Positions 52,371 to 53,497 of a stretch of 64,000 nucleotides of DNA are shown here, piece by piece. A model generated the notes under the pieces. It was not told the origin of the DNA. It did no database searches and worked only from the letters and a program-made list of their open reading frames with translations. Each line of letters starts with the position of its first letter. The first letter of the stretch is position 1. The stretch lies in sequence record PP925840.1. One strand, 5' to 3'. Position numbers and translations under genes: made by a program. Source of the stretch: Escherichia phage SholemSchwarzbard.

Positions 52371-52404
52371 TTTATTCTCCAAATCCGTATCAGTTGATAG
52401 TTGT

Positions 52405-52434
52405 ATAGTACCATAAAGCTTTATGCTTGTAAAC
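52405..52434 (-). promoter_or_regulatory. T4-type early promoter (cassette copy)
   Basis: plus atagta 52405-52410 and gtaaac 52429-52434. Confidence 0.55.
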
Positions 52435-52466
52435 CGTTTTGTGAAAAAATTTTTGAAATAAAAAAG

Positions 52467-52484
52467 GGGAGCCCGAAGGCTCCC
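52467..52484 (-). terminator. intrinsic terminator, C(UUCG)G hairpin GGGAGCC-CGAA-GGCTCCC plus U-tract
   Basis: perfect 7-bp stem followed on mRNA strand by CUUUUUUAUUU; right after stop of the nucleotidyltransferase gene. Confidence 0.7.
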
Positions 52485-52486
52485 TA

Positions 52487-53497
52487 TCATTTATAATAAC
52501 TTCGATGGTTTTCAAGATAAACCCTCTCAAGGAAGTCATCCCAGAAACCCATGTCTACTTTTTGCTGCATACCGTTCTTAGAAGCTTCAGTAGATGCTGC
52601 TTCTACTTGATCGACCACATCTTCCAAAAACTCTTGAACTGTTTTAAATGGATGCTTACCCAACTTCACGTCGAGAATAAATGGAGCATCTTGGAGTGGA
52701 TAAACCAAGTCACCAGTTTTGTAAATTTCCAATAGTTGAAGTCCACCACGACAAGCATGGCTCAGAGCTTTCCAGTCAATGCCTTCGTTGGCTTCGGCCT
52801 TACGAGCACGTTCACCGTATTCAGCATCTAATTTGTTCAGTGACTGCTTAAGCTCAATAAGAGAAAGAGTTGTCTGATATTTACGACCCAACACAGTGTA
52901 GAACGTTTGTGGGCCTGTTTTCTCATGATTATGGAACACCCATTCACAGAATTCGTTTTCTGGAAGACGATGCTTAATATCTTCAACTTTAGTACGACGC
53001 TGCTTAATAGAACCATCTTCTTGGTAATCAACCCATTGCTCAGGGATTTGATTAACTACTTTCAATACATCACGTAATGCAGCCAAACGAGAACCCTTGA
53101 CACCGTATTTAGAAGCTTGCTTGCGGACATATCCTAAATATGATTTCATGTTAGTCGTATAAAAACGAGAACGGTTGTCTTGAATAAACTTCCACACATC
53201 AGGCAAATCAGATTTAACCACTAGTTCAGGTGGAGTGTGAAGCATATCCAACGCTACAGTTTCACCATCTGCTGCTAATTTAAAGAAATATTTAAGACTG
53301 TATAGTTCATGGTCAATATCATCTTTAGTGTTTTTAGATGATGTGTTGTTAGTGTTTTTACTCATGTGCTCTTTGACATTTCCGATAAGAATATCGCGAG
53401 CAGGAGGAACAAAGATTTCTTTAAAATCTACATCAGATTCTGGGGTAGAAGTTCCATAAAGATGACTACCAAAATAGCTTTTCATTACTGTTTTCAT
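52487..53497 (-). CDS. putative nucleotidyltransferase (Pol-beta superfamily fold), 336 aa
   Basis: N-terminal GSHLYGTSTPESDVDF matches the G[GS]-x9-13-D-x-[DE] nucleotidyltransferase signature, with a downstream acidic residue (ALDMLH). Confidence 0.65.
   Translation of the reverse strand: MKTVMKSYFGSHLYGTSTPESDVDFKEIFVPPARDILIGNVKEHMSKNTNNTSSKNTKDDIDHELYSLKYFFKLAADGETVALDMLHTPPELVVKSDLPDVWKFIQDNRSRFYTTNMKSYLGYVRKQASKYGVKGSRLAALRDVLKVVNQIPEQWVDYQEDGSIKQRRTKVEDIKHRLPENEFCEWVFHNHEKTGPQTFYTVLGRKYQTTLSLIELKQSLNKLDAEYGERARKAEANEGIDWKALSHACRGGLQLLEIYKTGDLVYPLQDAPFILDVKLGKHPFKTVQEFLEDVVDQVEAASTEASKNGMQQKVDMGFWDDFLERVYLENHRSYYK

Follow-up and report, generated by a model that had tools for sequence, protein, structure and literature searches.

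Why does a block of DNA containing a hairpin and a promoter-like sequence recur at several gene junctions of one phage, and do its copies resemble each other more closely than promoter signals alone would explain? The block considered here lies at positions 52371-52490 of a 64,000-nucleotide stretch of Escherichia phage SholemSchwarzbard (PP925840.1; hereafter the window). An earlier note on this DNA had described it as one of at least five copies of a terminator-plus-early-promoter cassette that might provide homology for modular gene exchange. The source is a Tequatrovirus, i.e., a T4/T2-like coliphage, and the window is its first 64 kb; its alignment begins at T4 coordinate 1, with approximately 90-99% identity in aligned blocks, and places the focal site in the nrdC.11/nrdC.10 intergenic region. 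The early genes of the phage are on the minus strand in the window. The comparison with T4 also reveals many homing endonuclease polymorphisms in the region.

Our answer, which we consider very probable, is that the modules are T4-type early promoters, some of which form a promoter-early stem-loop (PeSL) with a terminator, and that the copies are related by descent and occasional recombination. Both the cassettes and the PeSL composite are already known from published T4 early promoters and PeSLs.

Structure of the five cassettes

All features given below are on the minus strand. The hairpin of the focal cassette (GGGAGCC-UUCG-GGCUCCC, 52467-52484) begins 3 nt past the nrdC.11 stop codon (TGA, 52489-52487) and folds as RNA with an energy of -15.6 kcal/mol (z = -3.0). 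It is followed by the terminator U-tract CUUUUUUAUUU (52456-52466) and by an A/T-rich tract that is UP-like in sequence, CAAAAATTTTTTCACAAAACG (52435-52455), of which TTTTCACAAAA is common to the copy at 25027. The -35 region is GTTTAC (52429-52434), corresponding to the motif of T4 early promoters at -36 to -31 (PMC1524935), and the extended -10 element is TGG plus TACTAT (52405-52413), a spacing which predicts that transcription starts at the A at 52398. The 34-nt leader, ACAACTATCAACTGATACGGATTTGGAGAATAAA (52371-52404), has GGAG as its Shine-Dalgarno sequence (52380-52377), and the GGAGAATAAAA within it fits the strong RegB site consensus GGAGRAYARAA (PMC3014915), suggesting that RegB may cleave the leader. 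The gene that the cassette would drive is the nrdC.10 homologue (51402-52370), whose 322-aa product has weak AAA/STAND matches.

The other four copies were found where the earlier note had placed them, also on the minus strand. At the rI.-1/mobD.5 junction (copy 55990; 55930-56024), a hairpin (56024-56007) and U-tract precede GTTTAC (55990-55985), TACTAT (55966-55961) and a 28-nt leader with GGAG, which ends at an ATG at 55932. The soc/mrh.2 junction (copy 15160; 15102-15195) has a hairpin (15195-15174), a U-tract, GTTTAC (15160-15155), TATAAT (15136-15131) and a 26-nt leader with GGAG before the ATG at 15104. On the gene 43/imm.1 side (copy 25027; 24961-25052), a UP tract, GTTTAC (25027-25022), TACTAT (25003-24998) and a 34-nt leader are followed by an ATG at 24963, which opens an extra 78-aa ORF that is signal-peptide-like (phrog_4189). 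The copy at the nrdC.9/nrdC.8 junction (copy 50995; 50935-51020) consists of promoter and leader only, and the nrdC.9 stop codon (TAG, 51000-50998) is 3 nt upstream of its GTTTAC.

As had been proposed, GTTTAC and an 18-nt spacer ending in TGG are present in all five copies, and the -10 hexamer is TACTAT in four of them and TATAAT in 15160. In sigma-70 numbering, each has a GTTTAC-like -35 region (-36 to -31) 17 nt from a TAnnnT -10 element, a TGn extension in the form of the TGG directly before the -10, and an upstream region that by sequence is A/T-rich and UP-like. This upstream tract had been called A-rich, which is too narrow: 25027 and 52434 have A-tracts, but the tract is T-rich in 15160 and 55990, where it is the U-tract of the terminator itself. 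Downstream of the -10, all five have a leader of 26-34 nt with a GGAG Shine-Dalgarno sequence and then an ATG. Besides the focal site, the predicted transcript starts are near 55954, 15124, 24991 and 50959. The promoter part therefore fits the published definition of T4 early promoters, namely GTTTAC at -36 to -31 and a -10 element (PMC1524935; Nolan et al. 2006), with TGn and an A/T-rich UP region (PMC2988021; Hinton 2010).

The C(UUCG)G hairpin and U-tract that were said to belong to the module lie directly upstream of the promoter in three of the five copies (15160, 52434 and 55990, with fold energies of -15.1, -15.6 and -11.0 kcal/mol, respectively) but not in 25027 or 50995. The hairpin of the predicted terminator of gene 43 (25115-25132, AGGGACC-UCCG-GGUCCCU and then U5, -13.9 kcal/mol) has a UCCG loop, is 87 nt upstream of promoter 25027 and falls outside the range given in the earlier note. 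A hairpin remnant adjoining that promoter was considered and rejected as unstable (-5.6 kcal/mol, z = -1.4). Copy 50995 is without a hairpin, and its upstream tract is inside the nrdC.9 coding sequence. A GC-rich hairpin with a U-tract after a stop codon, the sequence pattern of an intrinsic terminator, is thus present at 52484-52467, 56024-56007, 15195-15174 and 25132-25115 and absent from copy 50995. In sequence and in their place directly behind stop codons, the hairpins look like canonical intrinsic terminators, which supports the promoter-plus-terminator reading. The record for SV76 (T2-type) labels the homologous hairpin a terminator, which is the depositor's annotation with its basis unstated.

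Hairpins of this kind, i.e., very stable, intercistronic and with a C-G-closed UUCG tetraloop, were reportedly described in T4 mRNAs by Tuerk and colleagues (PNAS, 1988), and those seen here do not differ from them. Three to five of the approximately 19 promoters discussed below have a hairpin nearby, and three of the six C(UUCG)G hairpins in the window are not beside an early promoter. A crude hairpin-plus-T scan of the window gave no strand bias (17 minus vs 19 plus), and a second terminator scan, covering 44-64 kb, exceeded expectation (22 vs 9.2), with hits spread over the two strands.

By homology to T4, the cassettes are expected to have promoter and terminator activity. As promoters for the host's sigma-70 RNA polymerase they would be very strong, each combining the UP-like A/T tract, GTTTAC, TGn and -10, and the GGAG of the short leader would be both Shine-Dalgarno sequence and target of the RegB nuclease. 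In the three copies with an adjacent terminator, the upstream transcript would end 13-32 nt before the -35, making terminator and promoter a compact stop-then-restart unit, the published PeSL.

Early promoters across the window

The window contains 14 matches to the pattern GTTTAC-N18-TAYWAT, whereas shuffled sequences would give 0.10, and none of the 14 is on the plus strand. With TGG in the pattern, there are 13 matches (0.03 expected). The PST/T4 PeSL consensus, TTTACW-N17-TAYWAT, also has 14 matches. A profile scan of both strands gave 21 matches, all of them minus-strand, and approximately 19 of these lie at gene starts. The claim of at least five copies is therefore true with room to spare, and with approximately 19 credible sites, the five modules make up one related group within a larger set of early promoters in this phage. 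A scan for generic sigma-70 promoters gave no useful signal (88 sites vs 84.8 expected); the T4-specific pattern alone discriminates. Two in-gene matches to the pattern (39651-39680 and 44315-44344; profile scores 24.7 and 20.2) are without TGG and without an A/T-rich upstream region, and we regard them as doubtful.

The early-promoter core upstream of rIIA.1 (2429-2458) has a 34-mer identical to that at 48022-48055, where the core upstream of nrdC.4 lies (48022-48051; repeat, profile and motif). A relative of the 25027 and 52434 cassettes with a degenerate -35, ATATAC (6124-6153), is kept in T4, T2 and PST. Profile and motif together identify cores for motB (6720-6749), motB.2 (7828-7857), sp (18779-18808), 55.6 (40090-40119) and regB (60158-60187). 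The dmd core (19282-19311) is identified by profile and TGG motif, the mobD.2 core (55149-55178) by these and by repeat, and the cores for modB (13029-13058) and an internal-protein gene (63184-63213) by profile. There are also a weak early-promoter-like site upstream of srd (11693-11722; profile score 12.4) and an early-promoter-like site with GTTAAC within the lysozyme gene homologue (63293-63322; profile and TGG motif).

The promoter sites are co-oriented with the early genes and occupy orthologous positions in T4, T2 and PST. Among promoter-proximal genes, 11/18 have GGAG as part of the Shine-Dalgarno region, compared with 9/103 other genes (p = 2e-6). A literature search for genome-wide T4 start-site mapping found nothing relevant. 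Early promoters of T4 were reportedly treated by Liebig and Ruger in 1989 and by Wilkens and Ruger in 1996. The sites in the window share with T4 early promoters the GTTTAC at -36 to -31, TGn-extended -10, TAnnnT, UP region, orientation and orthologous intergenic positions. Nothing essential differs, though the window has variants of its own, e.g., an mrh.2 cassette with a mobD.5-type -35 flank.

This layout also bears on whether the repeat could be a small mobile element (MITE-like or homing-associated, autonomous or not) that spreads by transposition or homing functions of its own. In favour, several copies are scattered between genes, in a region where homing endonuclease polymorphisms abound. 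However, neither terminal inverted repeats nor target-site duplications are present, every copy is on the same strand and has the geometry of a promoter at a gene start, and T4, T2 and PST have orthologous copies at these junctions. Rfam, searched with the entire window at the gathering threshold, returned no family. We consider a mobile element extremely improbable.

Similarity between copies

Alignment of the five copies shows that their likeness is not limited to the -35 and -10 hexamers. Outside the hexamers, mean identity is 0.465 among the five copies, 0.32 among the other promoters and 0.276 among random pairs, and in +1 to +20 it is 0.68 for the five, 0.30 for the other 14 promoters and 0.28 for random sequence. 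One pair of copies is 96% identical over 55 nt, runs of 27-34 nt are 100% identical among cassettes, and an 18-mer spanning the -10 and the transcript-start region is common to four copies. The five make up two related subfamilies, 15160/55990 and 25027/50995/52434, which the 18-mer links.

Two copies had been reported to share 28 identical bases. The identical run exists, between 15160 and 55990, but it is 27 nt long (TTTTTCATTTTACCGGTTTACTTTCCG), as is the string that the earlier note itself quoted. The compensatory change reported in the hairpin stem is real: GGACTCC/GGAGTCC in one and GTCTCC/GGAGAC in the other, an A:T to T:A swap. This 27-nt identity between the mrh.2 and mobD.5 cassettes of the window is absent from T4, T2 and PST.

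Could convergent functional constraint alone, with strong early promoters needing the same signals and recombination playing no part, produce this likeness? A consensus is common to all of the approximately 19 promoters, and the Hinton review gives additional consensus positions besides the classical elements (PMC2988021). Against this, the other 14 promoters are near random outside the hexamers, including in +1 to +20 where the five copies are most alike, and identical stretches of 34, 55 and 63 nt cover spacer and leader positions that are free of consensus. We therefore consider constraint alone unlikely. Part of the shared sequence (the UP tract, TGG and the GGAG-A-rich Shine-Dalgarno region) could reflect selection for function and not recombination.

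Similarity between 25027 and 52434 continues through the leader to ATGAAAA, as it might if the repeats were upstream regions of paralogous genes copied together with their promoters. However, the likeness ends a few bases past the ATG, identity between copies falls after approximately +40, and the products are unrelated (the 78-aa phrog_4189 ORF vs the 322-aa nrdC.10 protein), with no homology seen between the downstream proteins. Remnants of gene duplication are thus a scarcely credible source of the repeats. Common descent of the cassettes is the most likely source of their extra similarity, together with occasional events of ectopic recombination or gene conversion from one cassette to another, a mechanism to which the sequence comparisons point and by which small accessory ORFs could be inserted, deleted or swapped.

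Exchange at cassettes in related phages

The expectation that gene blocks at cassettes vary between related phages is borne out by direct examples at nrdC.11/nrdC.10 and gene 43/imm.1. Comparing T2/SV76, slur14, JLBYU24, sutha and IME537 with the window, T4 and PST, we find at least six gene-content alleles at the nrdC.11/nrdC.10 junction, with joints within the cassette (promoter or leader). In T2-type phages, nrdC.11 and nrdC.10 are separated by a 161-aa ADP-ribosylase-like ORF with a cassette copy on each side, and the window's single focal cassette has the hairpin of the first T2-type copy and the promoter of the second. The tract CCCCTTTT...CACAAA is shared by the two cassettes around this T2 ORF. 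The T2 cassette at the imm.1 site agrees with the nrdC.8-type cassette at every base over 63 nt, and an ACT leader indel swaps sites between T4 and PST. More generally, cassette variants are patchy across sites and phages and apparently move from one site to another far away.

The morons of lambdoid phages are promoter-ORF-terminator insertions, and the T2 insert at nrdC.11/nrdC.10 is similar in being an accessory ORF that brings a promoter and a terminator of its own to a place between two conserved genes. Unlike morons, T4-type inserts have phage-like base composition, and the joint is a repeated, phage-wide cassette. Nolan et al. argue against a moron-like character for the novel ORFs of T4-like phages (PMC1524935).

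Indel breakpoints are not enriched at cassettes. Among four genomes (window, T4, T2 and PST), a small sample with non-independent events, 22/209 (11%) fall within 100 nt of a cassette compared with 62/466 (13%) for gene junctions (odds ratio 0.77, p = 0.38); a first-pass enrichment test was likewise negative. Because breakpoints are no commoner at cassettes than at gene junctions, cassette-mediated exchange is real but a minor contributor here. The absence of enrichment is a further point for functional constraint alone, while the patchy spread of cassette variants and the cassette repeats that bound inserted ORFs count against it. Two candidates for cassette-mediated events were rejected: the cef/motB indel is an internal deletion, in T4 and PST, of the ORF lying between motB and cef, with joints outside homologous cassette sequence, and the T2 motB.1/motB.2 deletion has its joints inside the motB.2 coding sequence.

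These cassettes correspond to the PeSLs of Arbiol 2010 (PMC2839356) and Comeau 2014 (PMC4122927), whose exchange model was explicitly extended to the T4/PST pair. Like PeSLs, they have a stem-loop terminator, AT-rich tract, early promoter, Shine-Dalgarno sequence and ATG over approximately 100 bp, repeated in early and hyperplastic regions, and differential ORFs lie between two copies in one phage where another has a single chimeric copy. The PeSL stem-loop of RB49/phi1 is often within or overlapping the promoter and has a G-run/C-run, whereas here a C(UUCG)G hairpin is upstream of the UP tract. PeSLs are also described as forming mini-circles (PMC2839356). Copies 15160, 52434 and 55990 have the full composite of approximately 100 bp; 25027, with its hairpin 87 nt off, has it in part, as does 50995, which is promoter-only (a 'half' PeSL in Comeau's terms). 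Repetition with conservation between copies is seen, as are differential ORFs or a chimera (at nrdC.11/nrdC.10 and gene 43/imm.1); a preference of indels for cassettes is not, among the four genomes.

A wider reading, which we put forward tentatively and at somewhat less than even odds, is that T-even cassettes evolve in concert because sites 25-40 kb apart undergo short-tract ectopic gene conversion, and that a few junctions, chiefly nrdC.11/nrdC.10 with its six or more alleles, are recurrent landing pads for accessory genes, an ADP-ribosyltransferase-like ORF among them. Proposed examples of conversion are the window-specific 27-nt mrh.2/mobD.5 identity, the nrdC.8-type core at T2 imm.1 and the T4/PST ACT leader indel. 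If true, concerted evolution would mean that the PeSL idea covers sequence homogenisation as well as indels, and would offer a tractable T4/T2 locus for measuring it.

For annotation, the approximately 19 promoters, with a few UUCG terminators, allow the early transcription units of the window to be drawn, and a small ORF just 3' of a cassette can be flagged as a likely swappable accessory gene. For comparative work, the window adds new examples to a published model, with the caution that most indels in the region bypass cassettes. No new question is opened, though the nrdC.11/nrdC.10 junction would be a convenient natural locus at which to test PeSL-mediated exchange in T4/T2.

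Cassette anatomy and likely function

The earlier note had described at least five repeated modules, each a terminator followed by an early promoter. All five were confirmed on the minus strand, and we name them by the first base of GTTTAC: 15160 (soc/mrh.2), 25027 (gene 43/imm.1), 50995 (nrdC.9/nrdC.8), 52434 (nrdC.11/nrdC.10) and 55990 (rI.-1/mobD.5). Common to all are GTTTAC and an 18-nt spacer with TGG at its end, then TACTAT (TATAAT in 15160) and a 26-34 nt leader with GGAG 9-13 nt before the ATG. The focal copy, 52434, lies in the intergenic region at 52371-52490 (minus), between the nrdC.11 homologue (52487-53497) and the nrdC.10 homologue (51402-52370).

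GTTTAC-N18-TAYWAT matches the window 14 times, always on the minus strand, against 0.10 expected. Adding TGG and permitting one mismatch gives 13 matches against 0.03 expected, and a profile trained on the matched sites has 21 minus-strand hits and no plus-strand hits. Of the 21, about 19 are directly upstream of a gene start, so the five copies are a subset of a larger promoter set. A relative of the 25027 and 52434 cassettes at 6153 (6111-6172, minus) has the same UP tract (the A/T-rich stretch upstream of -35), TGGTACTAT and a similar leader, with ATATAC where GTTTAC is expected; it is conserved in T4, T2 and PST, and the 89-aa ORF downstream is internally deleted in T4 and PST.

In published T4 early promoters, GTTTAC occupies -36 to -31 and the UP-like tract is A-rich (Nolan et al. 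2006, PMC1524935). Their "uber" UP/-35/TGn/-10 architecture out-competes host promoters, and Alt contributes some stimulation by ADP-ribosylating the alpha subunit of RNA polymerase (Hinton 2010, PMC2988021). The cassettes match this anatomy in GTTTAC, UP-like tract, TGn and -10, from which we infer promoter activity, with a probable transcription start at the A at 52398 in the focal copy. Among minus-strand gene starts in the window, GGAG is present in the Shine-Dalgarno region of 11/18 promoter-proximal genes vs 9/103 others (Fisher p = 2e-6), a strong bias towards the gene immediately following an early promoter, which would fit RegB acting on promoter-proximal cistrons. Within the focal leader, GGAGAATAAAA agrees with GGAGRAYARAA, the consensus for strong RegB cleavage sites (PMC3014915), and would be a RegB substrate.

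A C(UUCG)G hairpin with a U-tract, which the note had placed in most copies, is directly upstream of only three on the minus strand: 52434 (52484-52467, -15.6 kcal/mol), 55990 (56024-56007, -11.0 kcal/mol) and 15160 (15195-15174, -15.1 kcal/mol). Beside the promoter of copy 25027 there is only an unstable hairpin remnant, with a UCCG-loop terminator 87 nt upstream (25132-25115, minus, -13.9 kcal/mol), and in copy 50995 the nrdC.9 stop codon is 3 nt from GTTTAC, which accounts for the absence of a hairpin there. In form and in position, just after stop codons, the hairpins are textbook intrinsic terminators and are probably active as such. UUCG tetraloop hairpins are reportedly a feature of T4 mRNAs. 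Three more C(UUCG)G hairpins, of the AAGGGGC-UUCG-GCCCCUU type, occur away from any early promoter (27896-27929, 30064-30097 and 39238-39271, minus). In phage slur14, the nrdC.11 terminator (L011 ~1185-1205, minus) has the same stem with an inverted loop, GGGAGCC-CGAA-GGCTCCC, i.e., the whole palindrome is flipped relative to GGGAGCC-TTCG-GGCTCCC.

With a putative terminator, an early promoter and a RegB-type leader, the arrangement suggests a three-step programme for each unit: the cassette would stop the upstream transcript, its promoter would restart transcription strongly at infection, and RegB would shut off expression at the leader.

Similarity among copies beyond the promoter consensus

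Likeness among the five copies exceeds the promoter consensus and is not confined to the hexamers, the outcome that the note had named as refuting its reading. With the -35 hexamer and TGG plus -10 masked, mean pairwise identity is 0.465 for the five copies, 0.32 for other promoter pairs and 0.276 for random pairs (99.9th percentile 0.433); over +1 to +20, the values are 0.68, 0.30 and 0.28. Between copies 25027 and 52434, identity is 96% across 55 nt that take in the leader and reach into ATGAAAA, and the 18-mer TGGTACTATACAACTATC is found at four of the five sites. The identical run in copies 15160 and 55990, put at 28 nt in the note, is 27 nt long, and the stem does show the compensatory A:T to T:A change. 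Because the proteins encoded downstream of different copies are unrelated, gene duplication is ruled out as the source of the repeats.

An identical 34-mer also occurs at 2429-2462 (before rIIA.1) and 48022-48055 (before nrdC.4), 45.6 kb apart. The entire core promoter is included (GTTTACTTTACCACAAGGATGTGGTATAAT and the 4 nt before it), and its spacer forms a small inverted repeat, TACCACA-AGGA-TGTGGTA.

Exchange at cassettes

Promoter-early stem-loops (PeSLs) were defined in RB49/phi1 by Arbiol et al. 2010 (PMC2839356), who demonstrated that they act as promoters and terminators and, on mini-circle evidence, suggested that the ORFs flanked by PeSLs are shuffled when the PeSLs recombine. The T-even pair PST/T4 was added to the model by Comeau et al. 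2014 (PMC4122927); their consensus, TTTACW-N17-TAYWAT, finds the same 14 minus-strand matches in the window. Three of the cassettes carry the full PeSL composite of stem-loop and early promoter. The promoter/terminator and exchange interpretation is supported and amounts to a rediscovery of the PeSL model.

Gene content at nrdC.11/nrdC.10 varies between related phages, with joints within the cassette. In T2-type phages (SV76, T2), this junction holds a 161-aa ORF related to RNA polymerase ADP-ribosylases (phrog_832), bordered by two cassette copies with common CCCCTTTT(TT)ATTTCAAAAATTTTT(T)CACAAA. A single cassette occupies this junction in the window, T4 and PST, composed of the upstream T2 copy's hairpin followed by the downstream copy's promoter and leader. 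At least seven length classes were present among 60 records sampled across the 542 matching phage entries, and four of these classes were examined in sequence: JLBYU24 has one 66-aa ORF, sutha three ORFs (one DUF4031), IME537 two ORFs, and slur14 the DUF4031 module, a second promoter and then the 66-aa ORF. The single JLBYU24 cassette is the slur14 upstream promoter joined to the slur14 downstream leader inside common CTATCAAAACAAA, as inter-cassette recombination would predict.

Cassette sequence may also move between distant sites. Downstream of gene 43, the T2 imm.1 site retains its local UP tract, but the 63 nt from GTTTAC to ATGAA are identical to the window's nrdC.8-type cassette and drive a different, 83-aa ORF; the same site holds a 78-aa signal-peptide-like ORF in the window and no extra ORF in T4 and PST. 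The 27-nt identity of the mrh.2 and mobD.5 cassettes is found in this genome only, compared with T4, T2 and PST, where the bases flanking GTTTAC at mrh.2 differ. T4 has a leader ACT indel at imm.1 and not at nrdC.10, and PST has the reverse. We take these examples as evidence suggestive of ectopic cassette conversion.

Mosaicism of the region

The window (G+C ~35%, GC skew uniformly negative) carries the early and middle genes of T4, all encoded by the minus strand. Its base 1 aligns to T4 coordinate 1 (the rIIA end), and 23 colinear blocks follow, mostly 90-99% identical with one short block at 77%, broken by ~22 indels or replacements. Hundreds of Tequatrovirus genomes match it at 95-99%, the best match over 25 kb being 97.1% identical.

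T4 features absent from the window are a ~900-bp segment holding dam (T4 16825-17725), the gene 60/mobA insertion (the topoisomerase gene, 39, is in one piece here, in T2 and in PST), mobB, mobC and the nrdD intron with I-TevII; the missing segments correspond to window 16405-16426, 2806-2858, 36812-36837, 41305-41325 and 42601-42604. As in PST, the mobD homing-endonuclease gene is replaced by tandem y05I-like putative transcription-factor genes on the minus strand, one at 53943-54464 (Pfam T4_y05I_N and T4_y05I_C) and one at 54471-55016, the latter assigned only from the PST MobD.1-1/MobD.1-2 layout. A 295-aa ORF (30770-31657, minus) inserted between gene 45 and rpbA is missing in T4, T2 and PST (875-bp gap in 3/3 comparisons); it had no Pfam match above threshold, and its GIY-YIG-like N-terminus, VYLISF...YYIGS, suggests a Seg-type homing endonuclease. 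Three minus-strand gene starts (17799-17829, 62765-62795 and 63099-63129) have common ATGAAAACATAT(C/A)AAGAATTTATT..., encoding MKTY(Q/K)EFI, which is similar to the N-terminus that targets T4 internal proteins to the capsid; two of the starts lie in the region equivalent to ipII/ipIII, which is replaced relative to T4, and the third belongs to a gene elsewhere, near 17.8 kb.

When the window, T4, T2 and PST were compared all against all, indel breakpoints were not enriched within 100 nt of cassettes: 22/209 unique breakpoints vs 62/466 gene junctions (odds ratio 0.77, p = 0.38), in a small sample of non-independent events. This argues against cassettes as the main driver of mosaicism in the region. 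Most of it consists of homing-endonuclease genes and small ORFs at promoterless junctions, where cassettes are not used, and two cassette-adjacent indels have joints outside cassette homology. Two loci, gene 43/imm.1 and nrdC.11/nrdC.10, came up in all of the comparisons.

The original observation is thus confirmed with minor corrections, and its interpretation is supported. The features are ordinary, documented T4-type elements that were already known: early promoters, UUCG terminators, RegB-sensitive leaders and PeSLs. The additions made here are modest: a negative enrichment result, examples of apparent ectopic cassette conversion and a multi-allelic nrdC.11/nrdC.10 junction.
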